64,000 bases of DNA from an uncultured Erysipelotrichaceae bacterium. Its GTDB lineage: Bacteria; Bacillota_I; Bacilli_A; Erysipelotrichales; Erysipelotrichaceae. The DNA lies in assembly GCA_964369955.1 (NCBI GenBank), contig CAYJFQ010000006.1:2763-66762 (forward strand), given 5' to 3'. Below, in pieces: positions 8,644-63,809 of the stretch (the first letter of the stretch is position 1; the number at the start of each line of letters is the position of its first letter). The position numbers were made by a program, and so were the translations under genes. The notes beneath the pieces were generated by a model. The model was not told where the DNA came from and did not search any database. It saw nothing but the letters and a program-made list of their open reading frames with translations.

Positions 8644-9945
<1,302 letters not shown>

Positions 9946-9956
9946 TTTAGTAATCA

Positions 9957-9985
9957 AAGAGAACAATTTTGTTCTCTTTTTTTCT
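9957..9985 (+). terminator. Intrinsic terminator after eno
   Basis: AAAGAGAAC / GTTCTCTTT stem followed by a T-run. Confidence 0.8.
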
Positions 9986-10007
9986 TCATTAAGGTATAAT
10001 AACTTCA

Positions 10008-16969: not shown

Positions 16970-17322
16970 GGGGGTGTAATGGATTTCGACAGGTAGTGAT
17001 TGGATTTTAAGTGCAGTGGTCTGGTAGACCTTAATACCGAAACAAAAAAATAAACGGAAACAATAGATTAAGTTTCGCTGCTTAATTACTCGACACAGAG
17101 TTAGTAGCTGCTAGTTAAAGTTTTAGTCTTTGGGCTTTAAACTAGTACCAGAAACAAAGAATAAGCAAGTATGAAGTTTGTGAATACTTGACGAAAAACA
17201 TACAAACAACTCATAAGTATTCTTGTCTATTAGTAACTTATGAGTACCATAATAGACTAAACTGTAGTACTTAAAATGGGGATCCTATTTGGACAGGGGT
17301 TCGACTCCCCTCACCTCCACCA
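16970..17322 (+). ncRNA. ssrA: tmRNA (SsrA)
   Basis: The 5' GGGGGTG pairs with the 3' CACCTCC-ACCA, giving a G3-U70 alanine identity pair. GGATTTCGACAGG is present near the 5' end and a T-arm GGGGTTCGACTCCCC near the 3' end. Length is 353 nt. The tag frame GGA AAC AAT AGA TTA AGT TTC GCT GCT TAA (17056-17085) encodes ...GNNRLSFAA. The exact resume codon is not certain. Confidence 0.9.
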
Positions 17323-40429: not shown

Positions 40430-40977
40430 TATGAATAAACAGTAATAATAACTACAAGCTGGCTTAATGATTTTAGCGCTGAATGATGCGTTAATGGGAT
40501 TAAGTAGAACTTTAATCGAGCTAACCTTTGCCTTGGAAAATAATTTACCAGTAGTGTTTATTGGTTTTATTTCTTCATTATGACGATCTCGAGTGAGCAT
40601 CTTTCTGGAAACTTAATGATAAAGGTAATGTTTTGAAGTCAGTAGTGTAGATATGATAATGTATTTAGTGACGCTTAGTTATAGTTAGCAACAGCTATCT
40701 TTTTGTTTTTAGGTTAATATTAATAATGGTTATTATCATTATTTTATTATTACCTATAATATATCTTTAGTTTTAAATCTTGATTTTAAAAGTCGGTTCA
40801 AAGAAATTACCGCAACTAGTTTAGGTGTTGTGGATTTAACTCTTGTGATTGGTTATTGTTAAGGTGTAAAAATATAGCTATTTACTATTAATTGATTTGG
40901 TTTTTAAAAAATAATTAAAATACTATCTATTTTAAGGAAAAAAGATTACACTATGCTTAACAAAGGAGATAATCATT

Positions 40978-41100
40978 ATGAGCTATGTATGCAAAGTATG
41001 TGGATACGTCTATGATGGGAGTGTGCCGTTTGAGTCATTACCAGATGATTGGGTTTGTCCATTGTGCGGTGTAGGGAAAGAAGATTTTATTAAGGAGTAA
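40978..41100 (+). CDS. Rubredoxin (shortened, 40 aa)
   Basis: Not in the ORF track. SD AAAGGAGA lies 8 nt upstream. [40 protein letters not shown] carries both CxxCG knuckles and the LPDDWVCP motif. Confidence 0.85.
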
Positions 41101-41107
41101 AAATAGG

Positions 41108-41133
41108 GGATAACTTTTAAGAGTTATCCTTTT
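41108..41133 (+). terminator. Intrinsic terminator after rubredoxin
   Basis: GGATAACT / AGTTATCC stem followed by TTTT. Confidence 0.6.
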
Positions 41134-41186
41134 GTATCTTATTTAAAAAATGTTAAAATATTAACGGAAAGTGGTGATGATTTATA

Positions 41187-41756
41187 ATGAAGAAAGATAT
41201 ATTGATGGTTGTCGATATGATTAATGGTTTTACTAATACTGGGGCAATGCACGATAAAAATATTGAGAGTATTATTCCTAATTGTGTAAAGTATATTGAG
41301 TATTTTTTAGAAAAAGGAATGGAAGTTATAGCCTTTAGAGATTATCATCAGATATATGATAAAGAATTTGAATTGTTTCCGACCCATTGTTTGGCTGGTA
41401 GTTTTGAGTCTGAATTAGTTGAGGAAATAAAGATTTTTCAGGACCAATTAAAAATAGTTAAAAAAAACACATTTAATGGTTTTGTAGCGGAAGAGTTTCA
41501 GGAAATTATTTCAAAGTTAAATGATTATCGAAATATTGTTGTGACCGGATGTTGTACCGACATTTGTGTAATTGAGTTAGTTAAATCATTAATGGAACAT
41601 AAGAAGGTTAATAATCTTGAGTACCAAGTGATTGTTGTTTCTAGTGCTTGTGATACTTATGATGCGATTAATCATAATCGAAAGATTTATCACAGCAATG
41701 CCTTGCAGCTAATGAACAGTATGGGGGCGGTGATTGTAGAGGAATATCATGAATAA
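41187..41756 (+). CDS. pncA: Isochorismatase-family hydrolase, probable nicotinamidase
   Basis: 189 aa. The catalytic Asp (VVDMINGF), Lys (VKKNTFNGF) and Cys (TGCCTDICV) are in the usual order. Overlaps pncB by 8 nt. Confidence 0.7.
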   Translation: MKKDILMVVDMINGFTNTGAMHDKNIESIIPNCVKYIEYFLEKGMEVIAFRDYHQIYDKEFELFPTHCLAGSFESELVEEIKIFQDQLKIVKKNTFNGFVAEEFQEIISKLNDYRNIVVTGCCTDICVIELVKSLMEHKKVNNLEYQVIVVSSACDTYDAINHNRKIYHSNALQLMNSMGAVIVEEYHE

Positions 41757-43179
41757 AATAATGTTGATGGATTTATATGAATTGACAATGGCTTACACTT
41801 ATTTTAAAGAGGGCAAACATAATGATGTTGCCTATTTTGATATGTTTATTCGTCGCACTCCTGATAAGAATGGGTATGTTGTTTTTAATGGCTTACATAG
41901 TTTTATTGAAGAGTTGAAGGATTTTAAATTTGCTGAAGAGGACTTATGTTACTTAAAGAGTTTAAAATTATTTGATGAAGAGTTCATTTCTTATTTAAGA
42001 GAGTTAGAGTTGGATATTGATGTTTATAGTTTAAAAGAGGGCACTATAGCTTTCCCTAATCAACCATTTGTGACAGTGAGTGGTAGTTTAATTTGTTGCC
42101 AGATTATTGAGACTTTATTGTTGGTGAGTATTAATTATGCGACTTTGGTTACTACCAAGGCTAGTCGTATTGTTTATAGTGCTCGTGATAAAGGAATTTT
42201 AGAGTTTGGTGCAAGAAGGGCTCAGGGCATTGACGCCTCTGTTGAGGGTGCTCGTGGTGCTGTGATTGCTGGTTGTGTTGGAACTTCTAATACTTTAGCT
42301 GGTTTAAAGTATGGATTACCTGTTTCTGGTACAATGGCTCATAGTTATATTCAAACATATAGTGATGAGTACTTAGCTTTTATGGATTATGCGAAAACAC
42401 AACCTAATAATTGTGTATTTTTAATTGATACTTACGACACTATTAATAGTGGACTTGTTAATGCGATAAGGGTCGCAAAAGAATATTTAATCCCTAATGG
42501 TTATAACTTAAAAGGAGTAAGACTAGATAGTGGTGATTTAGCTTATCTTTCAAAAAAAGTTCGTAGTAAATTAGATGCTGAAGGATTGTATGATACTAAA
42601 ATTATTGTCTCTAATTCTTTAGATGAATATTTGATTGAAGACCTACTTGCACAAAATGCGCCTATTGATCTTTTTGGAGTAGGAGAGAATTTAATTACCT
42701 CTGCTAGTTGTCCAGTTATTGGTGGAGTCTATAAAGTTGTTGCTGCAGAAAACTGTGGTATAATAGAGCCGAAAATTAAGATTAGTGAGAACAATGAGAA
42801 AATTACTAATCCTGGTTATAAAAAAGTATATCGTTTTTACGACAAAGATAATGGCAAGGCTTTAGCAGATTTGGTCGCTTTAGCGGATGAGGTAATTAAT
42901 CCTGATGAATATGAATTGTTTGACCCAGTTAGTCCTTGGAAGAAAAAGATCATTAACAATTATGTAGTCAGAGAACTTCAAGTTAAAATCTTTGAAAAAG
43001 GAAAACTTATCTACAAAGTACCAACTACTGAAGAGGTGAGAAACTACCATTTAGAAGAGTTAGAGAGTATTTGGGAAGAAGTCAGAAGACTTAGAAATCC
43101 ACATAAATACTATGTAGACTTATCACTAAAATTGTTTAATTTAAAAAATCAATTAATTGAAGCTAATCATAAAAAATAG
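41749..43179 (+). CDS. pncB: Nicotinate phosphoribosyltransferase
   Basis: 476 aa. DLYELTMAYTYF N-terminus, GTMAHSY and RLDSGDL motifs. Confidence 0.9.
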   Translation: MNKIMLMDLYELTMAYTYFKEGKHNDVAYFDMFIRRTPDKNGYVVFNGLHSFIEELKDFKFAEEDLCYLKSLKLFDEEFISYLRELELDIDVYSLKEGTIAFPNQPFVTVSGSLICCQIIETLLLVSINYATLVTTKASRIVYSARDKGILEFGARRAQGIDASVEGARGAVIAGCVGTSNTLAGLKYGLPVSGTMAHSYIQTYSDEYLAFMDYAKTQPNNCVFLIDTYDTINSGLVNAIRVAKEYLIPNGYNLKGVRLDSGDLAYLSKKVRSKLDAEGLYDTKIIVSNSLDEYLIEDLLAQNAPIDLFGVGENLITSASCPVIGGVYKVVAAENCGIIEPKIKISENNEKITNPGYKKVYRFYDKDNGKALADLVALADEVINPDEYELFDPVSPWKKKIINNYVVRELQVKIFEKGKLIYKVPTTEEVRNYHLEELESIWEEVRRLRNPHKYYVDLSLKLFNLKNQLIEANHKK

Positions 43180-43188
43180 GAGGTTATT

Positions 43189-44694
43189 ATGTCAGAAATA
43201 ACAAAAATAGTTGAGGATACAGGACTTACATATTATCAGCAATTATTAGCCCTTGCGAAAGTGGCAGAAAATAGTGACACAACAATTGTCAACAGCAATA
43301 AATTTGTAAAAGCTAAAGAGGAAAAGAGATTGTGTGATTTAAATGAAGGAGCGCTCCCTTATCGTCCACGTTACATTATTCCTAATTATCAAATCTTAAT
43401 GGATAAGGGTTCTAAATTTTTACAGTTAGCTCCACCTAAAGATATTTGGGAAGCTACATCTGCTTTGATGATCATGTATCATCATGTTCCATCTATTACT
43501 TCTTTCCCTGTTTACTTAGGAAACTTAGATACATTACTTGAGAGATTTGATGTTGATGAGAAAGAAACTAGAAAAGCTTTAACTTTATTCTTAAATCATA
43601 TCGACAAAACTTTAACTGATTCATTCGTCCATGCGAATATTGGTCCAAAAGATACGCGCATTGGTCGTATCATTCTGGAACTAACAGAAGAAATGCAGTT
43701 GGCTATTCCGAATATTACTTTAAAGTATGATCAAGATCTTACTAGTGATGAGTTTGCGAAGTTAGCTGCTGACTGCATGTTAAGGACTGCAAAGCCAAGT
43801 TTTGCCAACTACAAGATGTATACACATGATCATGGAGATTTTGCGATCGCTTCTTGTTACAATGGGTTTAGAATTGGTGGAGGAGGTTACACTCTTCCAA
43901 GGATGCGTTTATCTAATCAAACATCAGATGCGACTAGTGTTGAAGATTTTATGGATCGTGTTCTGCCTTATTATGTTAACTTACAGTTAGAATACATGGA
44001 TAAGCGTATTGTGTATATGGTAGAAAAATCAGCTTTCTTTAAGAGTAATTTCTTAGTTACTGAAGGATTCTTAAACCAAAAAGATTTTATTGGAATGTTT
44101 GGCCTAGTTGGTTTAGCTGAGTGTTGCAACAATTTATTGGGTATTACTGATAAAGCTCAAGGTTTCGGCCATAATAAATCAGCTGATGATTTAGGTGTTA
44201 AAATAATTGAGAGAATTGAAGAGTTAGTAGCAAAACACAAAGCTCCTTATAGTGAGAATAATGATGACCGTTATTACCTGCATGCGCAAGTAGGTTTAGA
44301 TACTGATGGAACCGATTCAGCTCCTGGTTGTCGTATCCCTATTGGTTTTGAACCTGACTTTGTCAACCAATTAAAACAATCGGCTAAATATCATAAGTAT
44401 TTTACAACAGGTATTGGAGATGTCTTTAAGTTTGACGATACTTGGTTTAATAATTTAGATGCTTTACTTGATGTAATCAAGGGTGCCTTTAATAATGGTA
44501 TTAGATATCTTTCTGGATATAATGCAGATTGCGATGTAATCAGAGTTACAGGCTATCTAGTTAAGAAGAGTGAAGTTGCGAAATTAGATGCTGGAGAAGC
44601 TGTCCTAAATCAAGTAACAACTTTTGGTAGGGGTGCACGTGATGGAGCTAAATCTTTTGATCGTACGGTAAATCATGGAAGCTCTAGTAAATAA
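43189..44694 (+). CDS. yjjI: Short glycyl-radical enzyme, YjjI family (DUF3029-like), function unknown
   Basis: 501 aa with SD AGGAGG. The C-terminal radical motif is IRVTGYLV (Gly codon GGC at 44551-44553) and a candidate Cys loop is SAPGCRIPIG. It is about 500 aa rather than about 800 aa, and a YjjW-type activase is coupled directly downstream. Confidence 0.65.
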   Translation: MSEITKIVEDTGLTYYQQLLALAKVAENSDTTIVNSNKFVKAKEEKRLCDLNEGALPYRPRYIIPNYQILMDKGSKFLQLAPPKDIWEATSALMIMYHHVPSITSFPVYLGNLDTLLERFDVDEKETRKALTLFLNHIDKTLTDSFVHANIGPKDTRIGRIILELTEEMQLAIPNITLKYDQDLTSDEFAKLAADCMLRTAKPSFANYKMYTHDHGDFAIASCYNGFRIGGGGYTLPRMRLSNQTSDATSVEDFMDRVLPYYVNLQLEYMDKRIVYMVEKSAFFKSNFLVTEGFLNQKDFIGMFGLVGLAECCNNLLGITDKAQGFGHNKSADDLGVKIIERIEELVAKHKAPYSENNDDRYYLHAQVGLDTDGTDSAPGCRIPIGFEPDFVNQLKQSAKYHKYFTTGIGDVFKFDDTWFNNLDALLDVIKGAFNNGIRYLSGYNADCDVIRVTGYLVKKSEVAKLDAGEAVLNQVTTFGRGARDGAKSFDRTVNHGSSSK

Positions 44695-45511
44695 AATAAT
44701 TGAATTTTCAAATGTGGATGGACCGGGCAATCGCCTATCCATCTTTTTTCAAGGATGTCCTTTTAATTGTTTGTACTGTCATAATCCAGAAACAATTAAT
44801 CGCTGTATTAGTTGTGGAGATTGTTTGAAAGTTTGTCCAACTAATTCTTTAAAAATAATTGATGGCAAAATGACTTATAATAGTTTAACTTGCGTTAATT
44901 GCGATAAGTGTATTATTGCATGTGCGCATAATAGTAGTCCAAAAGTAACTAACTATGAAGTTTCACAATTAATCGAAATAATCAAAGATAATAAATTATT
45001 TATTCGCGGAATTACTGTAAGTGGTGGAGAATGCATGGAATACCCAGAGTTTCTACTAGAATTATTTAAGGAAGCGAAAAAATTAGGACTATCTTGTTTG
45101 ATTGATTCTAATGGTGCTTATGACTTTTCTAAGCACCAAGAATTAGTAATGTTGTCAGATGGAGTAATGCTGGATGTTAAGGCTGGAGATTCAAAGTTTC
45201 ATCAATTATTGACAGGGTGTGATAATCAAACAGTCTTTAATAATCTAAAGTATTTATTAGAAGTTAATCGTCTATTTGAAGTAAGAACAGTTTTGTTACC
45301 AAACTTTGACCAAGAGAACCTAATAACCATTAAAAAAGTAGTAAAAGTAATTAATGATCATTGTCAATACAAACTAATTAAATATCGCGGATATGGCGTA
45401 AGAGGGATTGGAGTTGAAGAATTTGGCTCTAAAATTTTAGATGAAAAACTGTACAAAAAATATCTTGATTATTGTCGCCAGTTAGGACAAACTAAAATCA
45501 TTGAAATTTAA
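44675..45511 (+). CDS. yjjW: Glycyl-radical enzyme activating protein (radical SAM), YjjW-like
   Basis: 278 aa. Radical-SAM CPFNCLYC motif plus two ferredoxin-like motifs (CISCGDCLKVCP and CVNCDKCIIAC). Overlaps yjjI by 20 nt. Confidence 0.8.
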   Translation: MEALVNKIIEFSNVDGPGNRLSIFFQGCPFNCLYCHNPETINRCISCGDCLKVCPTNSLKIIDGKMTYNSLTCVNCDKCIIACAHNSSPKVTNYEVSQLIEIIKDNKLFIRGITVSGGECMEYPEFLLELFKEAKKLGLSCLIDSNGAYDFSKHQELVMLSDGVMLDVKAGDSKFHQLLTGCDNQTVFNNLKYLLEVNRLFEVRTVLLPNFDQENLITIKKVVKVINDHCQYKLIKYRGYGVRGIGVEEFGSKILDEKLYKKYLDYCRQLGQTKIIEI

Positions 45512-45523
45512 CACTTACTAAAT

Positions 45524-45552
45524 AAAAAACTATCAAATATTGATAGTTTTTT
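45524..45552. terminator. Bidirectional intrinsic terminator
   Basis: AAAAACTATCA / TGATAGTTTTT stem between convergent genes. Confidence 0.8.
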
Positions 45553-45568
45553 GAGTTATTTTGTGTCA

Positions 45569-46240
45569 TTAATTTTTACGATAAGAGATAGCAGAAACCG
45601 GACAATTAATAAAACAATCTCCACATTCATCACAACGATATTCATCAATTGAATAGATGTTATCCTCTTCTTTTATCGCAAGAAAAGAGCACTTATTTTT
45701 ACATAAGCCACAAGCAATACAAAGTTCACGGTTAATATTTAGCCCTTTGCGTTTTTCTTTCGCACCACCGTAGGCAAAATATTCTCTTTGGATTTTATTT
45801 TCACGACTCACCTTTTCAAAATCATAATCAAAAACATCTCCATAGCCTTCTGTAATGCAGAAGATAACCATCGCATTATATTTTTCATAGTCTTTTATAC
45901 ATAAGTCAAATAGAGAGTTATTTTTCTCTTTAATTTTTTGAATAGATACTTCTTTAACTTTACCAGTCATTCTGATGGCATAACCATTCTCAAATATAGG
46001 CAGTCCATTATCATCGTGTTTAACTTGAGTATTAGCATTTAGACCGCAAATAGATAACCAAGTAGTCTTCTTTAGTTGAGAATAAAAATCTTTAGTAAAC
46101 ATAGTCATGAAATAAATGCCTTGATCATCATAGGCTCTTAAGTGGGCAATTCTTGATTCTGGTATTCCGTTTCCATCGACTGTAGTAAATGAAAGACAAC
46201 CAATATTTTCAAACTTCTCATAAATTTCTTTAATAGTCAT
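45569..46240 (-). CDS. PNPOx-like FMN-binding split-barrel protein fused to a 2x[4Fe-4S] ferredoxin domain
   Basis: 223 aa. The N-terminal ~160 aa resemble pyridoxamine-5'-phosphate-oxidase-family proteins. The C-terminus carries CIACGLCKNKC and CDECGDCFINCP. Confidence 0.6.
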   Translation of the reverse strand: MTIKEIYEKFENIGCLSFTTVDGNGIPESRIAHLRAYDDQGIYFMTMFTKDFYSQLKKTTWLSICGLNANTQVKHDDNGLPIFENGYAIRMTGKVKEVSIQKIKEKNNSLFDLCIKDYEKYNAMVIFCITEGYGDVFDYDFEKVSRENKIQREYFAYGGAKEKRKGLNINRELCIACGLCKNKCSFLAIKEEDNIYSIDEYRCDECGDCFINCPVSAISYRKN

Positions 46241-46451
46241 CCAATCCCTCCTATCAACTGTTTTGTTTATTTAATTTTACACAATAATTTAAGATATTAC
46301 GACTATCATTGAAGTGCTACAAAATTTATTAACTGTTTTAGTTACAATTAGAAAAAAAGATTAAATTTTGAATCATGGATAAAAATAATCAAACGTTTTC
46401 AAAGAAACTGCAATTAATTGTTTTGTTTATGGTTTTGGGTCGTAATATTGA

Positions 46452-46480
46452 TTGACTAGTATAGTTAAACTTGTTAAAAT
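46452..46480 (+). promoter_or_regulatory. Sigma-A promoter of the nucleoside ABC operon
   Basis: TTGACT (46452-57), a 17-nt spacer and TAAAAT (46475-80). Confidence 0.5.
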
Positions 46481-46513
46481 AACCTTGACAATATGTCACA
46501 AACGGAGGGAATT

Positions 46514-47575
46514 ATGAAAAAGATTTTAGGTGTATTACTTGTCGTTCTTATGTCTCTTTCAATGGTTGCTTGTACAAGCGCACCTGCTGGAGATGCAATT
46601 TCTATCGGTTTTGTTACTGACGTTGGAGGAATTGATGACAAATCATTCAACCAAACTAGTTGGTCTGGAATCGATAAATATGCTGAAGAAGCTGGCTTAA
46701 CTGAGGATGATGTTAAATATTTACAATCTACTGTAGATGCTGATTACATTCCTAATTTAACTGAGTTTGCGGAAGCACAAGTTGATTTAATCGTAGCTGC
46801 TGGTTTCTTATTTGCGGATGCAATTTCTGAAGTGGTTGCTAACTATCCTGATCAAAAAACATTAATTATCGATGTTGACTGGTTAGAAGGTGAAAATCTT
46901 CAACAAGCTGTATTTGCTGAGCATGAAGGCTCTTTCTTAGTAGGTGTTACTGTTGGTTTAGCTGCAAAAGCTGCTGGACAAGATACTGTTGGATTTATTA
47001 TGGGTATGGAATCTGCAGTTATGGCTAAATTCTATGCTGGATTTGAAGCTGGTGTATTAGCTGTTTATCCAGAATGTGAAATTCTTTATGATAATGCTAA
47101 TAGCTTTGTTTCTCCAGAAGTAGGAAAAACTTTGGCTGCAAAACAATATAATGCTGGCGCTTATATCGTTTATCATGCTGCTGGTGGTACAGGTAATGGA
47201 GTAATCCAAGAAGCTGCTGACCGTCGTGCAAATGGTGAAGATGTTTGGGTATGTGGTGTTGATACTAACCAATACGATCAAGGTATCTATGATGGTACAA
47301 ACTCTGCAGTATTTACTTCAATGTTAAAAAGAGTAGATGTTGCTGCTTACAATGCTGCTAAAGCTGTTGCTGAAGGCACATTCGAAGGTGGAGTTGTAGT
47401 TTATGACCTTAAATCTGATGGTGTAGGTTTACCTGCTGAAAACCCTAACTTCGCTAATGAAGCTTTCGCTGGTGTAGATTTTGATGCTGCTGTTAAAGAG
47501 TATACTGATAAAATCATTTCTGGTGAAATCGTTGTTCCTGTTGTAGGACAAAATAATGTTGGTTTAGGCGGTTAA
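46514..47575 (+). CDS. BMP-family (PnrA/Med/TmpC-like) nucleoside-binding lipoprotein
   Basis: Track ORF 46493. The ATG at 46514 follows SD GGAGGG. Lipobox SMVAC. VTDVGGIDDKSFNQ is the BMP-family signature. Confidence 0.85.
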   Translation: MKKILGVLLVVLMSLSMVACTSAPAGDAISIGFVTDVGGIDDKSFNQTSWSGIDKYAEEAGLTEDDVKYLQSTVDADYIPNLTEFAEAQVDLIVAAGFLFADAISEVVANYPDQKTLIIDVDWLEGENLQQAVFAEHEGSFLVGVTVGLAAKAAGQDTVGFIMGMESAVMAKFYAGFEAGVLAVYPECEILYDNANSFVSPEVGKTLAAKQYNAGAYIVYHAAGGTGNGVIQEAADRRANGEDVWVCGVDTNQYDQGIYDGTNSAVFTSMLKRVDVAAYNAAKAVAEGTFEGGVVVYDLKSDGVGLPAENPNFANEAFAGVDFDAAVKEYTDKIISGEIVVPVVGQNNVGLGG

Positions 47576-47595
47576 TTTTAACTAAATAAAACCTT

Positions 47596-47628
47596 AAAGT
47601 AGACACTTAATGTGTCTACTTTTTTTAT
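47596..47628 (+). terminator. Intra-operon terminator/attenuator after the binding-protein gene
   Basis: AAAGTAGACAC / GTGTCTACTTT stem followed by a T-run. A TATAAT follows before the ATPase gene. Confidence 0.7.
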
Positions 47629-47669
47629 TCTTTATATAGTATAATTAACCTAGATTAAGGAGCGAGAAT

Positions 47670-49196
47670 ATGACATATGCAATTGAAATGCTTAACATAA
47701 CTAAAGATTTTCCGGGTATCCGTGCTAATGATGATGTTACTTTGATGGTTAAAGAACAATCGATTCATGCGCTACTAGGAGAAAATGGCGCTGGTAAGTC
47801 AACTTTAATGTCTATTCTTTTTGGTTTATATCAACCTACTAAAGGGAAGATTAAAGTAAAAGGAAAAGAGGTTTTGATAAACAATCCAAATATTGCTAAT
47901 GATTTAGGAATAGGGATGGTTCATCAACATTTTAAATTAGTTGATAGTTTTACAGTCACTGAGAATATTATATTAGGCAATGAACCTAAAACTGCTTTTG
48001 GTACCATTGATATCAAGGGTGCAGCTAAGAAGGTTAAAGAAATATCAGAAAGATACGGTTTAAATGTTGACCCTAATGCTAAGATTAGTGATATTAGTGT
48101 CGGTATGCAACAAAGAGTTGAAATTTTAAAAATGTTATATCGCAATTCAGATATATTAATTTTTGATGAACCAACAGCAGTATTAACCCCTCAAGAGATT
48201 CATGAGTTAATGAAGATCATGAAAAATATGATTAGTGAGGGCAAAACAATTTTACTGATCACTCATAAGTTAAATGAAATTAAGGAAGTAGCTGACTATT
48301 GTACAGTTCTTCGAAAAGGTAAGGGTATTGGCACAGTTGAAGTAAAAGATACTAGTGAAAAAGAGATGGCTGAAATGATGGTGGGGCGTCAAATTAACTT
48401 CAATATAGAAAAAGCCGATATTACTCCTGGCGAAGTGGTGCTTAAGGTTGATAATTTAAATGTTAAAGATTCTCAAGGATTAATGGCGGTTAAGAATTTA
48501 TCTCTTGAGGTTAGAGCTGGTGAAATCTTAGGGATTGCCGGTATTGATGGTAATGGACAGACTGAACTTGTTTATGCCTTGACTGGGCTAAGACATTGTG
48601 AGAGCGGCCATATTCACCTAAATGGAAACAACATTACTAATTATAAAGTTAAAAAACGTTTTGAAGCAGGGATGGCTCACATTCCTGAAGATCGTCATAA
48701 ACATGGGTTAGTTTTAGATTTTCCACTTGAGTATAATTATATTCTACATTGTTATAATGACCAACCATTTAGTGTATCTAGCATCTTGCAACCAACTGTA
48801 ATAAGTGATTATGCAGATAAACTAATTGAACAGTTTGATGTCCGTAGTGGTCAGGGCAAGGATTCTATTGTTCGCACAATGTCTGGTGGAAATCAACAGA
48901 AAGCAATTATTGCTAGAGAAATTGATCGCTCTGCAGATTTACTAGTTGTTGTTCAACCTACTAGAGGATTAGATGTAGGAGCTATTGAATATATCCATGG
49001 TCGCATAGTAGCTGAAAGAGATAAAGGCAAAGCGGTTTTGTTAGTATCTTTAGAATTGGATGAGGTAATGCAGTTATCTGATCGTATTGCAGTTATTCAT
49101 AATGGGGAAATTACAGGTCTTCTTGATAGTAAAGATGCTAATGAGAATGAGATTGGACTAATGATGTCTGGTTCGTTAAAGAAGGTAGAGGTGTAG
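47670..49196 (+). CDS. ABC transporter ATP-binding protein with duplicated ATPase domains (nucleoside/sugar type)
   Basis: 508 aa. Walker A GENGAGKST and signature-like VGMQQRVEIL in the first half. The second half is degenerate, with SGGNQQK. Confidence 0.9.
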   Translation: MTYAIEMLNITKDFPGIRANDDVTLMVKEQSIHALLGENGAGKSTLMSILFGLYQPTKGKIKVKGKEVLINNPNIANDLGIGMVHQHFKLVDSFTVTENIILGNEPKTAFGTIDIKGAAKKVKEISERYGLNVDPNAKISDISVGMQQRVEILKMLYRNSDILIFDEPTAVLTPQEIHELMKIMKNMISEGKTILLITHKLNEIKEVADYCTVLRKGKGIGTVEVKDTSEKEMAEMMVGRQINFNIEKADITPGEVVLKVDNLNVKDSQGLMAVKNLSLEVRAGEILGIAGIDGNGQTELVYALTGLRHCESGHIHLNGNNITNYKVKKRFEAGMAHIPEDRHKHGLVLDFPLEYNYILHCYNDQPFSVSSILQPTVISDYADKLIEQFDVRSGQGKDSIVRTMSGGNQQKAIIAREIDRSADLLVVVQPTRGLDVGAIEYIHGRIVAERDKGKAVLLVSLELDEVMQLSDRIAVIHNGEITGLLDSKDANENEIGLMMSGSLKKVEV

Positions 49197-50297
49197 ATGA
49201 TGAAGAATAATCGTGCTGTAACTGTATCTTTGATATCTGTTGCCTTAGGTTTATTGTTAGGTTTAGTTGTAGTAATAATTACAGGTCGCAGTCCTGTTGA
49301 TATGTTATTGGCTATTTTAAAGTCAATGACAGGAATTAATGTTACTGCTAGAGGTGTTAACTATAACATAGTATATGTCTTAAATTGGTTTACTGAGGTT
49401 ATGCCTCTAATCTTAACTGGTTTATCTGTAGCATTTGCATATCGTACTGGATTGTTTAATATTGGGGCTGATGGACAATATATGATGGGAGCTACTGCAG
49501 CTTCTGCTGTTGCTTTATTTGTAGATTTGCCACCCGTTATTCATCCAATAGCTTGTATCTTAGCTGCGATGGTGGCTGGTGCTGCGTGGGGATTCTTCCC
49601 AGGTTTCTTAAAGGCTACTCGAAATATACATGAGGTTGTTATTTGTATTATGTTTAACTATATTGGATTACATTTTTCTAACTACTTAGTTAGATATCAT
49701 ATGCCGATTGATGTTAAAACTAACCAAAGAACAATTGCATTTCCTGAGAGCGCTCATGTTGGAAAAGTTGTTGAATCTTTAACTTCACAGTTTAACTGGG
49801 GATTCTTAGTTTGTGTGATTGCAGTTTTTGTTGTTTGGTTCATTATTGAGAAAACTTCATTCGGCTATTCTTTGAAAGCTACTGGTTTTAATAAGGATGC
49901 TGCTAATTTTGCAGGAATGAAAGTTAAGCGTAATATTGTTTTATCGATGATGATATCTGGTGCTCTTGCAGGAGCCGCTGGAGCAGTTGTTGTCTTAGGT
50001 GTTTTCCGTTACGGAAGAATCTATGCGTCATTTGATAACTATGGTTTTAATGGCATACCAGTTGCTTTAGTTGGGGCAGCAAATGCCTTTGGGGTAGCTC
50101 TTGCTAGCTTACTATTTGGTTTACTTAAAGCTTGTAGCACTACTTTCCAAACTTATGGAATTCCAAAAGAAATTTCTGATTTAATTCAAGCAAGTATCAT
50201 CTATTTAGTAGCTATCCAATATGGAATTCTAATAGTGATTGATAAGTTAAAAGTTCGAAAAGAAAAAAAATTAGAAGCAGTAGGAGGTGACAAATAA
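49197..50297 (+). CDS. ABC transporter permease (BMP/nucleoside system)
   Basis: 366-aa polytopic protein whose start abuts the ATPase stop. Confidence 0.85.
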   Translation: MMKNNRAVTVSLISVALGLLLGLVVVIITGRSPVDMLLAILKSMTGINVTARGVNYNIVYVLNWFTEVMPLILTGLSVAFAYRTGLFNIGADGQYMMGATAASAVALFVDLPPVIHPIACILAAMVAGAAWGFFPGFLKATRNIHEVVICIMFNYIGLHFSNYLVRYHMPIDVKTNQRTIAFPESAHVGKVVESLTSQFNWGFLVCVIAVFVVWFIIEKTSFGYSLKATGFNKDAANFAGMKVKRNIVLSMMISGALAGAAGAVVVLGVFRYGRIYASFDNYGFNGIPVALVGAANAFGVALASLLFGLLKACSTTFQTYGIPKEISDLIQASIIYLVAIQYGILIVIDKLKVRKEKKLEAVGGDK

Positions 50298-51253
50298 TGG
50301 ATATTATTATTGAAATGTTTCCGATAGCTTTAGTCTTAGCTACTCCTTTAATTATTGCAGCGCTAGGCGGATTCTTCTCAGAAAGGTCTGGAGTTGTAAA
50401 TATCGCTTTAGAAGGCACGATGTTAGTTGGAGCATATGTGGCAGCTGGTACATTATATGGATTAAGTAATGCTAATGTTCCAGGGGCTCTTTATATTTCG
50501 GTTATTGCAGCTATTGTTTGTGGTATTTTGTTCAGTGCATTGTTAGCTTTTGCAGCTATTCATATGAAAGCTGATCAAACGATTGCTGGCACTGCTTTAA
50601 ATATCTTATCTGGTGGTTTAGCTATTTATATTTGTGAAATTATTTATGGCAGTAAAAGTACACCGGCTTTCTCGTTTGACGCAACTTTCTCAAGAGTATC
50701 AATTCCGATTTTAAAGGATATACCAATTATCGGACCAATGCTATTTACTGATAACTATCCAACAATTTATATTGCGGTAGTTCTAGTCTTTGTGACATGG
50801 TTTGTTGCTTATAAAACACCATTTGGATTGAAGTTAAGATCTTGTGGTGAATATCCACAAGCAAGTGCCTCAATGGGTATAAATGTTGTTAAGATGAGAT
50901 GGATTGGCGTTTTAACCTCAGGTGCATTTGCAGGACTTGCAGGCGCGAGTATTGTATTGACTACTGCAACTTATGCATATGCTGGTTCTATTCATGGTCT
51001 AGGGTTCATTTCTATTGCCACTCTAATCTTTGGTGGATATAAGCCTTGGGGTGTATTATTTGCAGGCTTATTCTTTGGATTTACTCAAACTCTTGGATTG
51101 TATTCAAGTAGTATTGAGATGTTCGCGACATGGCCTTCTGAATTCTTCACTATGTTTCCATATATTGCGACAGTAATTGCCTTAATATTATTTAGTGGTA
51201 GAGCTGTTGCGCCAAAAGCATCTGGTCAAATTTATGATGCAGGCAAACGTTAA
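50297..51253 (+). CDS. ABC transporter permease (BMP/nucleoside system)
   Basis: 318-aa polytopic protein with SD GGAGGTG and a 1-nt overlap with the previous gene. Confidence 0.85.
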   Translation: MDIIIEMFPIALVLATPLIIAALGGFFSERSGVVNIALEGTMLVGAYVAAGTLYGLSNANVPGALYISVIAAIVCGILFSALLAFAAIHMKADQTIAGTALNILSGGLAIYICEIIYGSKSTPAFSFDATFSRVSIPILKDIPIIGPMLFTDNYPTIYIAVVLVFVTWFVAYKTPFGLKLRSCGEYPQASASMGINVVKMRWIGVLTSGAFAGLAGASIVLTTATYAYAGSIHGLGFISIATLIFGGYKPWGVLFAGLFFGFTQTLGLYSSSIEMFATWPSEFFTMFPYIATVIALILFSGRAVAPKASGQIYDAGKR

Positions 51254-51665: not shown

Positions 51666-51690
51666 AAAGCTCTATCCATGATAGAGCTTT
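51666..51690. terminator. Bidirectional intrinsic terminator
   Basis: AAAGCTCTAT / ATAGAGCTTT stem. Confidence 0.75.
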
Positions 51691-53578
51691 ATTCTTTTAG
51701 TAGGTAAGCTTCAACACTATTATCTTGATATGTAATGTAGATAACTTTTGTCGGAACTTCAGAAAGAGTTGTATAAGTTAAAGTATTTACAACTTCTTTC
51801 CATTTATCAGTTGGAATTAATTGATTATCTGTTGACTGGGAGTAAGTACGTTTTAATGAATCGCAGTTTTTAAATAGCTGACTGACCTCTAGTCCGACAG
51901 TCATTTCTTTAATGTTCGCAAAATCGCTAGTCAAACCAGTCAAACCAATTGATTTTATTGTATTTGTGAATTGTTGGTAGACAGGAACATTGATTCTTTC
52001 GCCATTACCATTGGCAAGTTGAATAAAATAAAGAGGCATTGAATTTGTTTGATAGATATCTTGGTAGTCTAAAGCTAGGACATCAATAACAAGATTACTT
52101 ATTACTTCTTGAGAATGTTCATAAGAATAATTAATATGATGTCTAGTAGTTTTTAAGTTATCTTGAACACTATAAATTAACCAAGCTGCTTGATTTTCGA
52201 GTATAGGTTGATAGATAGGGTTATAAATCTTACTAGCAAGAATTTCTTGGTAAAATGAGTAAGGGATCAAAGATTGGTCAAAAGTATATTTTCTCTTATG
52301 ATTCATAATTTGATTATCATAAATGAAGTTTAAGTGAATAGGAATATCCACCTTGCTTTTTTTCTGATCAATAATCGCTTTATGTAAATCATTGATTGCG
52401 AGAATTGCTGAGGAATCAACAATTTCTATAGCGCTAGATAAACTATGAGGATTATTAATTGCAGAATAATTGTTAAAGACATTGTCAAAGAAATTAGAAT
52501 TAACTTCGATAGTGGTATATTCATTAGCGACTGGTAAATAATATGCATAACCATAACCACCGGTCATCTGTAAAGAAATAACTACTACAAGACAAGCTGA
52601 TATATAAGCCACAAAGTTCCCAACAGTTTTTTTAAGGTAATTAAATCCACGCTTACTTAAAGCATCAATCGTCAGGTAAGTAACTAATGAAAAACCAATC
52701 GCAAAGATATACTTGCCTAATACTCCAAAATTATTAGAAAGCGCAATAACTAAACACCCCATAAAAACTGTAAAAGTCGCAACATATTTTATTAATGGAT
52801 AAATCATTTTAGAAACAGAAGCCTCAGAACTTTGTTCAGCCCTTTTTGTGTAGAAGAGAATCGAAGCAAAAATTGGTATTAAAATCATTAAAATTAGATA
52901 AAACAAATAAACATAAAAACTAACATTAGTTGTCCAAATCGCAAAAATTCCATAAATCGGAGATAACATCACTAACAAGTCTTGATAGTAGTAATTAGGA
53001 AAGCCATAAATTGAATTCTCTAAGAATATAACAATTGAGTAATAAATAACCACAGGAATATTAATTAGAATTAAACTAGCTGTATAGCTATCGGTTAAGT
53101 TATTACATTTTTGAATCACAAAAGTCACAATATTATAAATAGCAAGAAAAACTAAAACAATGCTTAGGTAAATCAATAAATACTCAACAAAGAAAGAGGA
53201 GCCTTTAATTATTAACGAGAATATCCCTAATAAAGTTGAAATAGTTATTGGAACTAAGATAAAAATTAATCCCAACACATATTGTTGTAAAAAAATGGTT
53301 TGTCTTTTAACAGGTAGTGAATAATAGAAATCAGCCGACTTCTTATGATTTGTAAAATCAAATAATATAATTGGGAAAACAAAACCAGAAACCAATAAGA
53401 TAACAGAAATGAAAATAAAGAAGGGATAACTAGATTCGATAGTTAGAAACTCTGAGTTAATCGCTAAAACAATAAGAGGGAAAGTAGAAATACCTAAAGC
53501 AAATAAAAATATTAGAGTACTAATATGCTTAGAGAGTTGGAACTTTAAATAATTTGAAAGAGTTTTATTTTTTTTCAT
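51689..53578 (-). CDS. Large ABC-2-like permease with a C-terminal extracytoplasmic domain of about 290 aa
   Basis: Track ORF to 53617. The ATG at 53578 (MKKNKTL) overlaps the ATPase stop. About ten hydrophobic helices are followed by a long non-hydrophobic domain. No family recognised. Confidence 0.5.
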   Translation of the reverse strand: MKKNKTLSNYLKFQLSKHISTLIFLFALGISTFPLIVLAINSEFLTIESSYPFFIFISVILLVSGFVFPIILFDFTNHKKSADFYYSLPVKRQTIFLQQYVLGLIFILVPITISTLLGIFSLIIKGSSFFVEYLLIYLSIVLVFLAIYNIVTFVIQKCNNLTDSYTASLILINIPVVIYYSIVIFLENSIYGFPNYYYQDLLVMLSPIYGIFAIWTTNVSFYVYLFYLILMILIPIFASILFYTKRAEQSSEASVSKMIYPLIKYVATFTVFMGCLVIALSNNFGVLGKYIFAIGFSLVTYLTIDALSKRGFNYLKKTVGNFVAYISACLVVVISLQMTGGYGYAYYLPVANEYTTIEVNSNFFDNVFNNYSAINNPHSLSSAIEIVDSSAILAINDLHKAIIDQKKSKVDIPIHLNFIYDNQIMNHKRKYTFDQSLIPYSFYQEILASKIYNPIYQPILENQAAWLIYSVQDNLKTTRHHINYSYEHSQEVISNLVIDVLALDYQDIYQTNSMPLYFIQLANGNGERINVPVYQQFTNTIKSIGLTGLTSDFANIKEMTVGLEVSQLFKNCDSLKRTYSQSTDNQLIPTDKWKEVVNTLTYTTLSEVPTKVIYITYQDNSVEAYLLKE

Positions 53579-54449
53579 TGTGATCCTCACTTTCTTGATA
53601 GATATATTTTTCCTCAAGGTTTAATTCTTGTTGATTAAGAATCAATGGATTTAATTTTTTCAGTTGATTTTGGATTGTCGATAGTTTGCCACCTACCAAT
53701 ATTTTAATTATTTGCCCTTCTGTTTTATAACTTAAAATATTTAATTCTTTAAAATCAGCTTCAGAAACTTCAAAGTCGAATGCTAATTGAAACTTATGGG
53801 TGTTTTTAAATTTATGGTTAATTAAATCTAACGAGATATTGCCATCATTGATTAAGACAACTTTGTCACATAGATCTTGAAGCTCATTGAGATTATTTGA
53901 ACAAACGATAATCGTTTGAGTATTGTTTTTAGCATTATCTTTCAGCATCTTTTTTAAATTTAATGAGATGCTAGGATCTAGTCCCTGAAAAGTTTCATCC
54001 AGTAAAAGATATTTTGTCTTAATTGAAAGAGCTAAAATCAATGATGCTAATCTTTTCTTTCCTTGTGAAAATTTTCTTAATTCACTATTTTCTTTAATTG
54101 GAAAGATGTCTAAAAGACGATGATAGGTTTTATCGTCAAAGTTTGAGTAATAGATTTTATAAAATCTTCGCATTTCTGCTAGGGTACTTAATGGTAGAAA
54201 ATAAGCTTGTTCACTTACTAAGACAATTTCATTTTTTAAACTATTGTTTTCATAGATTGGTATGCCCCCAACTTTTAGATATCCGCTATCTGAATGGTAG
54301 ATACCGCTAATCAATCTTAAAAGAGTTGATTTACCAGAACCATCTGACCCTAAGATTCCAAGTATTTCTCCATCGTTGACATTTAAGGTCAAATCGGAAA
54401 TGATTTTCTTTCCGTGAAATGACTTATTTACTTTTATTAGTTCGATCAT
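53565..54449 (-). CDS. ABC transporter ATP-binding protein
   Basis: 294 aa with Walker A GSDGSGKST, signature-like FSQGKKR and Walker B LLLDE. Confidence 0.85.
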   Translation of the reverse strand: MIELIKVNKSFHGKKIISDLTLNVNDGEILGILGSDGSGKSTLLRLISGIYHSDSGYLKVGGIPIYENNSLKNEIVLVSEQAYFLPLSTLAEMRRFYKIYYSNFDDKTYHRLLDIFPIKENSELRKFSQGKKRLASLILALSIKTKYLLLDETFQGLDPSISLNLKKMLKDNAKNNTQTIIVCSNNLNELQDLCDKVVLINDGNISLDLINHKFKNTHKFQLAFDFEVSEADFKELNILSYKTEGQIIKILVGGKLSTIQNQLKKLNPLILNQQELNLEEKYIYQESEDHNEKK

Positions 54450-60515: not shown

Positions 60516-60590
60516 GCCCCCATAGTAAAAGGGATATTACAAGCCCCTCCTAAGGGTTAGTTGTAGGTTCGAGTCCTACTGGGGGTGCCA
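60516..60590 (+). tRNA. tRNA-Arg (anticodon CCT)
   Basis: A 75-nt cloverleaf was built by hand. Acceptor GCCCCCA/TGGGGGT (G1-U72). D arm GTAA-AAGGGATA-TTAC. Anticodon arm AGCCC-CTCCTAA-GGGTT. T arm GTAGG-TTCGAGT-CCTAC. Discriminator G with an encoded CCA. Confidence 0.9.
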
Positions 60591-62807: not shown

Positions 62808-63809
62808 ATGCCCTTAATAATAGTAAGAAATGATATTACAAAAATGGAAGTGGATGCAATTGTCAATGCCGCTAACAATTCTTTATTAGGCGGTGGTGGA
62901 GTTAATGGTGCAATCCATGCGGCTGCCGGACCTAGATTATTAACTGAGTGTAGAACTTTAGGTGGATGCGAAACGGGTCAAGCAAAAATTACTAAAGCTT
63001 ATAACTTAAAATCTAAATATGTTATTCATACCGTAGGACCAGTTTGGAATAGAGGTAATAAAGAAGAAGAAAAGTTATTGGCTGATAGTTATAAAAACTC
63101 ATTGCAATTAGCTATTGATAATAACTTAGAAAGCGTTGCCTTCCCATTAATTTCTACTGGAGCTTTTAAGCTACCAATAGATAATGCTATAAATATCGCG
63201 ACAACTGTCATTAGAAATTTCTTAATAGAACATGAGATGACAATTTATTTAGTTGTATATGATAGAAAATCTTTAATAATTTCCCAAGATTTATTTGAAG
63301 ATGTATCACAATATATCGATGATAATTATGTTGACCAACACACAAGTCCAAGCAGAATTACTTTATTGAATAGTGAACATAGAAATTCTTACAGCATACC
63401 CCCAATCAGAAAAAAACCTGATAGCTCAATAACTGAACGGAACTTAGAAAATATGCTTCTAGATATTGAAGATACATTCTCAGAAAGGTTATTAAAGTTA
63501 ATTGATATAAAAGGCTATACTGATGTAGAAACCTATAAGAAGGCAAATATAGATCGAAGATTATTCTCAAAAATAAAAGGAAGTAAAAACTATCGACCTA
63601 AAAAACAAACAGTCATTGCTTTTTGTTTGGCTCTAGAATTAAACATTGACGAAACTAAAGATTTCTTATTAACTGCTGGTTATGCTCTTTCGAATAGTAG
63701 TCAGTTTGATTTAATAATTCGATACCATATTGATAATGAGATTTATGATGTCTATGAGGTAAATCAATCTCTATTCCACTTTAATCAAAATCTATTAGGG
63801 GTAGAATAA
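62808..63809 (+). CDS. Macrodomain (ADP-ribose / O-acetyl-ADP-ribose hydrolase-like) fused to a C-terminal HTH-like module
   Basis: 333 aa with SD GGAGGAG. The N-terminus DAIVNAANNSLLGGGGVNGAIH...FPLISTG is a canonical macrodomain. The C-terminal ~120 aa (FSERLLKLIDIKGYTDVETYKKANIDRRLFSKIK...AFCLALELNIDETKDFLLTAGYALS) resemble an XRE-like HTH module common in Clostridia. Confidence 0.85.
   Translation: MPLIIVRNDITKMEVDAIVNAANNSLLGGGGVNGAIHAAAGPRLLTECRTLGGCETGQAKITKAYNLKSKYVIHTVGPVWNRGNKEEEKLLADSYKNSLQLAIDNNLESVAFPLISTGAFKLPIDNAINIATTVIRNFLIEHEMTIYLVVYDRKSLIISQDLFEDVSQYIDDNYVDQHTSPSRITLLNSEHRNSYSIPPIRKKPDSSITERNLENMLLDIEDTFSERLLKLIDIKGYTDVETYKKANIDRRLFSKIKGSKNYRPKKQTVIAFCLALELNIDETKDFLLTAGYALSNSSQFDLIIRYHIDNEIYDVYEVNQSLFHFNQNLLGVE

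Follow-up and report, generated by a model that had tools for sequence, protein, structure and literature searches.

A block of four + strand genes in the window (the whole stretch of DNA analyzed, 64,000 nt, from a low-GC [31%], Erysipelotrichaceae-like genome) consists of two nicotinamide salvage genes, a gene for a glycyl radical enzyme, and the gene for its activase, namely, pncA (41187-41756), pncB (41749-43179), yjjI (43189-44694), and yjjW (44675-45511). All four are new members of known families. We cautiously favor the reading that this operon is a variant of an anaerobic nucleoside/ribosyl scavenging island, in which YjjI performs radical chemistry on a ribosyl compound. The broad signal of yjjIW neighborhoods is nucleoside and ribosyl metabolism, and a link of YjjI to nucleoside uptake and breakdown shortens the list of candidate substrates.

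An earlier note, made from the sequence alone, had described a single four-gene operon, and this reading fits the sequence, with hairpins on both sides of the block. The junctions were as described: pncA and pncB overlap by 8 nt, a 9-nt gap separates the pncB stop from the yjjI start, and yjjI and yjjW overlap by 20 nt. The AGGAGG ribosome-binding site of yjjI (43179-43184, + strand) overlaps the pncB stop codon. Upstream of the operon lies the gene for a 40-aa mini-rubredoxin (40978-41100, + strand; Pfam Rubredoxin, 47.7 bits), which also precedes pncA in the relatives L002 and L094. It is closed by its own terminator-like hairpin (41105-41132, + strand; 12 pairs and then a T-rich tail), as had been claimed, and this hairpin marks the upstream boundary of the pncA-yjjW unit. 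A candidate operon promoter was picked out by eye directly behind it (41133-41160, + strand; TTGTAT, 16 nt, and TGtTAAAAT as an extended -10); the match of the promoter scan itself (41161-41188) overlaps the pncA start codon and is less plausible. Promoter-like matches inside the block were all weak (9 of 12 positions), and the whole region had fewer of them than shuffled sequence (38 versus 46.3).

A consensus scan of the + strand from 41133 to 47596 found no terminator-like site. It missed an A+T-rich perfect hairpin at about 45523-45552 (no strand assigned), which is flanked on each side by runs of A and U and has a folding energy of -14.7 kcal/mol (z = -3.96; none of 200 shuffled sequences folded as stably). 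These results agree with the claim that there is no terminator until 45524. The hairpin sits between yjjW and a convergent gene (45569-46240) and is, judging by its sequence, a probable bidirectional terminator common to both.

The assignment of pncA and pncB to nicotinamide salvage was borne out by profile scores and active-site residues. PncA (189 aa; PF00857, 97.5 bits) has the isochorismatase fold and belongs to the nicotinamidase-type cysteine hydrolases. When it was aligned residue by residue with the nicotinamidase of Pyrococcus horikoshii (1ILW), the catalytic residues D10, K93, and C127 and the metal ligands D52, H54, and H67 were all present; each is invariant in five orthologues. 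PncB (476 aa) is a nicotinate phosphoribosyltransferase (NF006695, 648.9 bits; cutoff, 469) with three NAPRTase Pfam domains.

The 501-aa protein is a YjjI-family glycyl radical enzyme, as the note had proposed: it matched PF11230 (671 bits) and TIGR04040 (654 bits), the latter above the curated cutoff of 498. The IRVTGY motif reported there is present; its G455 (GGC codon, 44551-44553) is the radical glycine and aligns with Gly465 of Escherichia coli YjjI, which has been labelled in vivo by a radical probe. C223, within an S-C-Y-N motif, is the candidate for the thiyl cysteine. Alignments of 22 and of 60 diverse sequences (A1 and A3) show no variation at G455, C223, R452, and some other positions. 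According to its AlphaFold (AF2) model (pLDDT, 91.8), YjjI most resembles class III ribonucleotide reductase in fold, with NrdD structures as the best Foldseek matches in the PDB (TM-score, 0.70 to 0.75; probability, 1.0). Comparison with E. coli NrdD by hhalign gave 91% probability, with C223 not aligned to the catalytic cysteine of NrdD, and a sequence search of PDB chains returned no match at E ≤ 1. YjjI is still uncharacterized in the literature to August 2026; an older coexpression study of E. coli and Salmonella connected yjjI with regulation by nitrate and FNR rather than with nucleosides.

YjjW (278 aa) is a radical-SAM activase (TIGR04041, 339.9 bits; cutoff, 250) with a CX3CX2C motif at residue 28 and two motifs of the ferredoxin type (CX2CX2CX3C), which start at residues 44 and 73. 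The note was thus right about the two extra ferredoxin motifs but not in calling them a YjjW hallmark, because they are common to many glycyl radical activases; the next-best HMM matches of YjjW are activases of PFL-class enzymes.

Our favored reading divides the operon into two modules. The first would be Preiss-Handler salvage, in which PncA deamidates nicotinamide to nicotinate, from which PncB makes nicotinate mononucleotide with PRPP as the second substrate. In the second, YjjW, which is predicted to carry two auxiliary [4Fe-4S] clusters besides its radical-SAM cluster, would cleave S-adenosylmethionine and take a hydrogen from Gly455 of YjjI; by analogy with glycyl radical enzyme chemistry, the radical would then pass to the invariant Cys223, and this residue would attack the substrate. 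This substrate, we infer, is most probably a ribosyl compound, either a nucleoside (nicotinamide riboside being one possibility) or a ribose phosphate released from a nucleoside; the pyridine ring itself is probably not the target. Within this bacterial family, the conserved core would consist of yjjI-yjjW and, behind it, a PnrA-type nucleoside ABC importer, and the position just upstream of yjjI would be a variable slot, filled once by pncA-pncB in this clade.

The nucleoside importer that the note had placed about 1 kb downstream is indeed PnrA-like and starts 982 nt past the yjjW stop. All of its genes are on the + strand and encode a Bmp/PnrA-type substrate-binding protein (46493-47575; PF02608, 204 bits), a double ATPase (47670-49196), and permeases (49197-50297 and 50297-51253). 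The best solved relative of the binding protein is Treponema pallidum TmpC/PnrA (2FQW, 305 bits). Bmp-type importers recur as yjjIW neighbors across lineages, with a Bmp gene within 3 kb in 21 of 94 loci.

The slot upstream of yjjI is occupied in sister lineages, on the same strand and with equally tight packing, by deoD-deoB (L011 and L096; equivalog scores above cutoff), ribokinase (L008), or ftsK. In L009, the gene immediately upstream of yjjI, also on its strand, encodes a nucleoside hydrolase, while nucleoside hydrolase and ADP-ribosylglycohydrolase genes are divergent from yjjI in L030, L035, L042, and L043; L095 has genes for an esterase and an ADP-ribosylglycohydrolase downstream of yjjW. 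At least one nucleoside, ribosyl, or NAD salvage gene was present within 3 kb of yjjIW in 33 of the 94 loci, and none within 6 kb in 58. Such genes numbered 57 at 0 to 3 kb, 14 at 3 to 6 kb, and 5 at 6 to 9.5 kb (491, 414, and 370 kb of available sequence, respectively), i.e., their density within 3 kb was about 9-fold that at 6 to 9.5 kb, for gene families picked after being seen near yjjI (an ascertainment bias) and for loci of related species, whose counts are not independent events. The note's statement that E. coli yjjI-yjjW adjoin deoCABD is true, with divergent transcription, and in Haemophilus influenzae a NupC transporter gene is contiguous with yjjIW. The suggestion of a nucleoside- or pyridine-derived substrate is clearly strengthened in its nucleoside part by the 94-locus neighborhoods, E. 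coli, and Haemophilus; its pyridine part is weakly indicated.

It is possible, although we consider it unlikely, that pncAB and yjjIW were merely packed together in a compact A+T-rich genome, with no common pathway and with a YjjI substrate unrelated to nucleosides or NAD. The gene for the housekeeping DNA translocase FtsK abuts yjjI (-8 to +3 nt) in eight sister species, packed as tightly as pncB; genes can therefore be cotranscribed without having a function in common, close packing is no sign of one, and the tight coupling stressed in the note carries little weight. Most loci have no informative neighbors, the yjjIW pair stands alone among unrelated genes in all four distant lineages sampled (Anoxybacter, Ferrimonas, a possibly actinobacterial contig, and Marinifilaceae), and the region upstream of pncA yielded no shared regulatory motif. 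Chance packing fits poorly, however, with nucleoside-related neighbors that recur in at least eight different architectures, across different Bmp paralogues (30 to 75% identity) and both strands, with two unrelated transporter families near yjjIW across phyla, with the steep drop in gene density with distance, and with a locus (L078) in which a bmp transporter operon encloses yjjIW.

A role for YjjI in NAD/nicotinamide metabolism, with pncAB as true pathway partners and, for example, nicotinamide riboside, NMN, or an intermediate with a pyridine ring as the substrate, appears more doubtful still. The pncAB-yjjIW adjacency is not unique to the source genome: the order pncA-pncB-yjjI-yjjW was found in five related sequences, including L002, L005, L091, and L094 (pncB-yjjI gaps, 1 to 53 nt), and was kept despite divergence of the YjjI proteins to 65% identity. 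These loci form one clade (monophyletic in an NJ tree), and the junction therefore arose once, which also accords with incidental packing. A separate, independent unit in Caloramator (L075; yjjI-yjjW-pncA-like, 4-nt overlap) encodes a PncA-like protein with all catalytic residues but lacks pncB. Among the yjjIW neighbors at other loci, ADP-ribosylglycohydrolase and an esterase could handle NAD-derived ribosyl compounds. Against a pyridine-specific role, only 6 of 94 loci have pncA or a pncA-like gene within 3 kb (four scored with pncB; L091, whose contig is short; and L075, which has pncA without pncB), a 20-kb stretch around E. coli yjjIW contains neither pncA nor pncB, and deoD-deoB or ftsK takes the same upstream slot in sister lineages. 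As a general property of the YjjI family, the pncAB link does not hold; it is one event in one small Erysipelotrichaceae-like clade, plus the L075 pncA.

Among known systems, Firmicutes Preiss-Handler operons resemble the first module in their overlapping pncA-pncB pair, equivalog-level PncB, and complete nicotinamidase catalytic and metal site, but here yjjI and yjjW continue the operon without interruption. E. coli YjjI/YjjW (b4380/b4379; PF11230 "YjjI-like," formerly DUF3029; TIGR04040 and TIGR04041) form the same overlapping two-gene module: the two YjjI proteins (516 aa in E. coli versus 501 aa; 36% identity) share the RVTGY glycine loop and the S-C-Y-N cysteine loop, three cluster motifs occur in the activase, and both pairs adjoin nucleoside catabolism genes. 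The E. coli pair is divergent from deoC, whereas the pair described here is codirectional with and translationally packed behind pncA-pncB and has a Bmp-type importer downstream. NrdD, the closest solved fold, resembles YjjI in having its glycyl radical loop at the C terminus, in a weak Pfam NRDD match (YjjI residues 174 to 353), and possibly in radical chemistry on the ribose ring, which would fit the nucleoside context of YjjI. However, identity is only 13 to 14%, YjjI is 100 to 200 residues shorter, its activase is of the three-cluster type rather than NrdG-like, and the catalytic cysteines did not align cleanly. Membership of YjjI in the NrdD family was rejected (NrdD HMMs, 21 bits; cutoff, 326). 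The PFL-class enzymes (PflB, PflD, HypD, CutC, and glycerol and propanediol dehydratases, with PflA/CutD-type activases) share the ten-stranded barrel and the Gly and Cys loops with YjjI (Foldseek matches ranked 15 to 50), but its PFL-like Pfam score (19.8) is under the gathering threshold (24.3), and YjjI is, as the note had remarked, far shorter, by about 250 to 300 residues.

The four ORFs of the block are all on the forward strand and are closely packed: pncA (41187-41756) overlaps pncB (41749-43179) by 8 nt; yjjI (43189-44694; 501 amino acids [aa]), the glycyl radical enzyme gene, starts 9 nt after pncB, behind an AGGAGG motif (43179-43184) that spans the pncB stop codon; and yjjW (44675-45511; 278 aa), the radical-SAM activase gene, overlaps yjjI by 20 nt. 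The ORF list and the sequence bear out this arrangement as described in an earlier note based on the sequence alone. The boundaries given in that note also held. A terminator-like hairpin (41105-41132, + strand) directly follows the rubredoxin gene upstream of pncA, and a consensus scan detected no terminator-like sites on the + strand within the block. The end of the unit, placed by the note at about position 45524, coincides with an A+T-rich perfect hairpin 3' of yjjW (approximately 45523-45552; -14.7 kcal/mol; z = -3.96) that the consensus scan had overlooked. Promoter-like matches within the block were all weak (9/12) and were fewer than in shuffled sequence (38 versus 46.3), while TTGTAT-16-TGtTAAAAT at 41133-41160, as read from the sequence, is a plausible extended -10 promoter candidate. 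By these sequence criteria, pncA-pncB-yjjI-yjjW is predicted to be a single transcription unit. The GC and GC3 contents were even over the four genes and therefore gave no indication of recent horizontal insertion.

No riboswitch was found near the operon by Rfam at gathering thresholds; the only Rfam matches were a transfer-messenger RNA gene (16970-17322, + strand; 139.5 bits) and a single tRNA gene (60516-60587, + strand). Likewise, there was no FNR/Crp-type box (TTGAT-N4-ATCAA) near pncA or the rubredoxin gene, and no conserved operator emerged when the sequences preceding pncA in four relatives were aligned. The rubredoxin gene (40978-41100, + strand) is unusually short (40 aa); a 40-aa rubredoxin is also encoded just upstream of pncA in L002 (handles of this form denote the yjjI loci of related genomes compared with the window), and in L094 a flavodiiron-type (ODP plus flavodoxin) gene and degV come after the rubredoxin gene. 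The roughly 550 nt that separate mscS from the rubredoxin gene (40430-40977) are very A+T-rich; they contain no convincing ORF and matched no Rfam family at the gathering threshold.

Downstream, the hairpin at 45523-45552 lies between yjjW and a convergent gene (45569-46240, - strand), and it probably ends transcription of both. The convergent gene encodes a protein of 223 aa in which a PNPOx-like FMN-binding domain is fused to a 2×[4Fe-4S] ferredoxin domain and which could be an electron carrier. It sits where L002 and L091 pass directly from yjjW to the bmp transporter genes. We rejected it as a conserved yjjIW partner given that no homologue was present in the 85 other loci screened. Further along the window, a 642-aa ORF with no Pfam match (51689-53617, - strand) overlaps the start of an ABC ATPase gene (53565-54449). 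The gene at 62808-63809 (+ strand), 17 kb from the operon, encodes a protein of 333 aa whose N terminus carries a Macro (ADP-ribose-binding) domain; its presence there is probably coincidental.

All four genes of the block belong to described families. The second is unambiguously assigned by profile searches to PncB, nicotinate phosphoribosyltransferase (NF006695, 648.9 bits, cutoff 469; TIGR01513, 544.6 bits, cutoff 297.4), and carries three Pfam domains corresponding to the N-terminal, catalytic, and C-terminal parts of NAPRTase. PncA has an isochorismatase fold (PF00857, 97.5 bits) but scored below the cutoff of the curated equivalog NF008623 for the E. coli type (34.9 bits, cutoff 174; match confined to the first 61 residues), a model based on the longer enterobacterial PncA type. 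In an alignment with the Pyrococcus horikoshii nicotinamidase (1ILW), D10, K93, and C127 of PncA match D10, K94, and C133, and D52, H54, and H67 match D52, H54, and H71; we take these positions of 1ILW to be the Asp-Lys-Cys catalytic triad and the Asp/His/His metal site, respectively. Because these residues match 1ILW and stay invariant in five orthologues, the prediction that the first gene encodes a nicotinamidase is sound.

The 501-aa product of the third gene was assigned to the YjjI family by both TIGR04040 (654.1 bits, cutoff 498.3; residues 3 to 494) and PF11230 (671.3 bits, cutoff 23), in agreement with the earlier note. The C-terminal motif proposed there as the radical site (IRVTGY, Gly codon at 44551-44553) was recovered as DVIRVTGY, with Gly455 encoded by GGC. 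G455 is in register with Gly465 of E. coli YjjI, which has been labelled in vivo by a radical probe. Residue conservation was assessed in two alignments, one of 22 and one of 60 diverse members of the family. G455, R452, and C223 were invariant in both, as were S222 and N225 of the S-C-Y-N loop that contains C223 (Y224 was nearly so) and several basic residues; T454 was invariant in the 60-sequence set. Further invariant positions include R61, K202, R238, R273, R382, H148, and H365. YjjW matched TIGR04041 (339.9 bits, cutoff 250.2) and contains the radical-SAM motif C28-X3-C32-X2-C35 and two CX2CX2CX3C (auxiliary 4Fe-4S) motifs at residues 44 and 73, which are the two extra ferredoxin motifs that the note had reported for a YjjW-like activase. 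By analogy with this enzyme class, YjjW would cleave SAM to place a radical on G455, from which it would be relayed to C223. [quoted passage not shown] A search of the literature and the PDB found no substrate, reaction, or structure for any YjjI-family member. Functional characterization of YjjI/YjjW was likewise not found in the literature, where expression tables are accompanied by a single functional proposal, i.e., a 2011 guess of "nitrogen metabolism" for yjjI from its coexpression with nar genes.

We next consider whether pncAB-yjjIW adjacency is unique to this genome. It is not: close relatives, obtained by exact-protein look-ups, have the order pncA>pncB>yjjI>yjjW in L094 (74% YjjI identity; 1-nt gap), L091 (71%), L002, L003, and L004 (70%; 8-nt gap), and L005 (65%; 53-nt gap). 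The adjacency is nevertheless narrow. A neighbor-joining tree of 94 YjjI sequences placed the five pncAB-yjjIW loci, including the window, in one clade, and the junction therefore arose once. Relatives at 62 to 65% identity lack the pncAB junction: L092, L093, and L095 have yjjI>yjjW>esterase>ADP-ribosylglycohydrolase>bmp instead, and L096 has crp< deoD>deoB>yjjI>yjjW>bmp-ABC. Among 80 GTDB species representatives (50 to 61% identity; no relative above 61% among the matches listed), none had pncB within 6 kb of yjjI; at least 594 yjjI loci were confirmed in GTDB. A metagenome scan yielded 3 loci. In L029, pncAB lies 8.5 to 10 kb from yjjIW on the opposite strand. The Caloramator metagenome-assembled genome (MAG) L075 is one independent yjjIW-pncA case, in which the end of yjjW overlaps by 4 nt a gene for a PncA-like protein that has all the catalytic residues. 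The pncAB-yjjIW fusion is an operon variant specific to its lineage.

What lies upstream of yjjI varies among the loci. The co-directional occupants of this slot are pncAB; deoD-deoB in L011 (Breznakia pachnodae; 2-nt gap) and L096 (DeoD and DeoB equivalogs above cutoff); a nucleoside hydrolase gene in L009; a ribokinase gene in L008 (TIGR02152 above cutoff); a Crp/Fnr-family regulator gene in Romboutsia and Terrisporobacter; and ftsK. In L030, L035, L042, and L043, ADP-ribosylglycohydrolase and nucleoside hydrolase genes lie just upstream of yjjI in divergent orientation. The ftsK gene ends -8 to +3 nt from the yjjI start in eight sister species (L007, L010, L012, L013, L017, L029, L032, and L036); tight packing by itself thus says very little about function, because a housekeeping gene abuts yjjI just as closely. 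This junction (approximately 9990-10005 in each locus) is part of a conserved miaB-rnj-ftsK-yjjI-yjjW order. Genes for Crp/Fnr-family regulators recur by the cluster (L002, 4372-5043; L005, 5208-5858; L094, 270-962; L096, 4179-4916; L011, 7194-7946; L051 to L060, approximately 9285-9974). Where the cluster is of the pncAB or deoDB type, the regulator gene usually lies upstream in divergent orientation; in Romboutsia/Terrisporobacter, it is co-directional and directly upstream. None is close to the operon in the window.

To rank neighbors without bias, all ORFs within 6 kb of yjjI were clustered for 83 loci. YjjW ranked highest (adjoining yjjI in 74 loci), followed by the components of the Bmp transporter (binding protein, 21; ATPase, 20; permeases, 19). 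Syntenic housekeeping genes (ftsK, rnj, and miaB) came next, and then a Crp-type regulator (8); PfkB kinases, ADP-ribosylglycohydrolase, and IU-nucleoside hydrolase (5 each); and PsuG (3). DeoD, DeoB, and cytidine and adenosine deaminases were recognized on further annotation. The nucleoside ABC importer that the earlier note had recognized downstream of yjjW is predicted to be a Bmp/PnrA-type system (46493-51253, + strand). Its genes encode a binding protein of the Bmp family, a double-ATPase, and two BPD_transp_2 permeases, a four-gene set shared by the orthologous operons of relatives. Its binding protein (PF02608, 204 bits) is closest to 2FQW, TmpC/PnrA of Treponema pallidum (305 bits), a lipoprotein that is a purine nucleoside receptor. 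Bmp paralogues near yjjIW share 30% to 75% identity with that of the window and are encoded on the same strand as yjjIW, either downstream or, in an eight-gene co-directional cluster (L009), upstream, or else divergently (rumen Clostridia). In an Anaerosporobacter MAG (L078, 8282-15944), yjjI-yjjW is inserted between the bmp binding-protein gene and the ATPase/permease genes of the same transporter. Outside Firmicutes, deoCABD adjoins yjjI in E. coli, as the note had stated, in divergent orientation, and a published Haemophilus influenzae region contains contiguous genes for YjjI, a radical-SAM protein, and the NupC nucleoside transporter. Large proteins of 650 to 700 aa are also encoded repeatedly beside yjjIW (L009, 2110-4050; L030, 4113-6146; L042, 7836-9830; L095, 10258-12354). 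They begin with an ADP-ribosylglycohydrolase domain, their C-terminal half matched nothing in Pfam or NCBIfam, and an IU-nucleoside hydrolase or BD-FAE esterase is often encoded alongside.

In 33 of the 94 loci compared, yjjIW has one or more nucleoside, ribosyl, or NAD-salvage genes within 3 kb. The density of such genes fell from 57 per 491 kb (0 to 3 kb) to 14 per 414 kb (3 to 6 kb) and 5 per 370 kb (6 to 9.5 kb), in families that were picked after being seen near yjjIW and in related species whose counts are not independent events. No such neighbor was found within 6 kb in 58 of the 94 loci, and yjjIW is an isolated pair in four sampled distant lineages (Anoxybacter, Ferrimonas, a possibly actinobacterial contig, and Marinifilaceae).

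An AlphaFold (AF2) model of YjjI built from the 60-sequence alignment (pLDDT, 91.8; pTM, 0.91) predicts the glycyl-radical-enzyme barrel fold. Foldseek matched the model with a probability of 1.0 to structures of class III ribonucleotide reductase (NrdD), pyruvate formate-lyase (PFL), PflD, and HypD-type enzymes. The best matches were NrdD of Prevotella copri, phage T4, and S. thermophilus (TM-score, 0.70 to 0.75; 13 to 14% identity), followed by PflD, hydroxyproline dehydratases, and PFL. No PDB chain matched YjjI by sequence at an E value of ≤1.

On this evidence, the operon joins a Preiss-Handler salvage pair to a self-contained glycyl-radical module, which in this bacterial family is probably part of a nucleoside-scavenging island (yjjIW plus the PnrA-type importer). 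We lean, with some reserve, toward a ribosyl compound as the YjjI substrate, because the products of the recurrent neighbors converge on ribose, ribose phosphate, or free base and because the fold is closest to that of an enzyme that performs radical chemistry on ribose. More tentatively, YjjI might be a slimmed-down NrdD relative whose oxygen-independent radical chemistry (e.g., 2'-dehydration or reduction) targets the ribose moiety of nucleosides taken up by salvage, of nicotinamide riboside, or of a ribose phosphate. If so, it would represent an unrecognized radical step in anaerobic nucleoside or NAD-precursor catabolism, and the presence of yjjIW beside bmp, nupC, deo, rih, rbsK, and pnc genes in unrelated bacteria would be accounted for. 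A role specific to nicotinamide riboside or NAD draws some support from the independent Caloramator pncA link and from the ADP-ribosylglycohydrolase neighbors, but we regard it as improbable. The sceptical reading, that pncAB is packed with yjjIW incidentally, is easy to reconcile with the ftsK junctions and the 58 loci lacking such neighbors, and less so with the concentration of nucleoside-type genes within 3 kb; we consider it rather unlikely, though less so than the NAD-specific role.

The suggestion of the earlier note that YjjI acts on a nucleoside- or pyridine-derived substrate is thus strengthened in its nucleoside part by the neighborhoods of the 94 loci; the NAD-salvage coupling that the note put first is a single-clade event. 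The window alone points to NAD; the comparison yields a sharper, testable statement, namely, that yjjIW is found again and again beside genes for nucleoside importers and for enzymes that free ribose or ribose phosphate from N-glycosides. This pattern provides a short list of candidate substrates and a reason to phenotype E. coli yjjI mutants on nucleosides. If YjjI acts on a ribosyl compound, the nucleoside catabolism of gut and rumen anaerobes would include a new radical reaction; if it does not, the operon would reflect compact-genome packing of unrelated genes.

In its predicted fold, YjjI is closest to NrdD. An hhalign comparison with E. coli NrdD (91% probability) supports homology, with the catalytic cysteines not cleanly aligned (C223 is not placed on the NrdD catalytic cysteine). 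Membership in the NrdD family was rejected on the basis of scores far below the cutoffs (TIGR02487, 21.2 bits versus 326; NF005497, 22.6 versus 764), and the Pfam NRDD match is limited to residues 174 to 353. YjjI is predicted to be like NrdD in its fold but not in its family membership.
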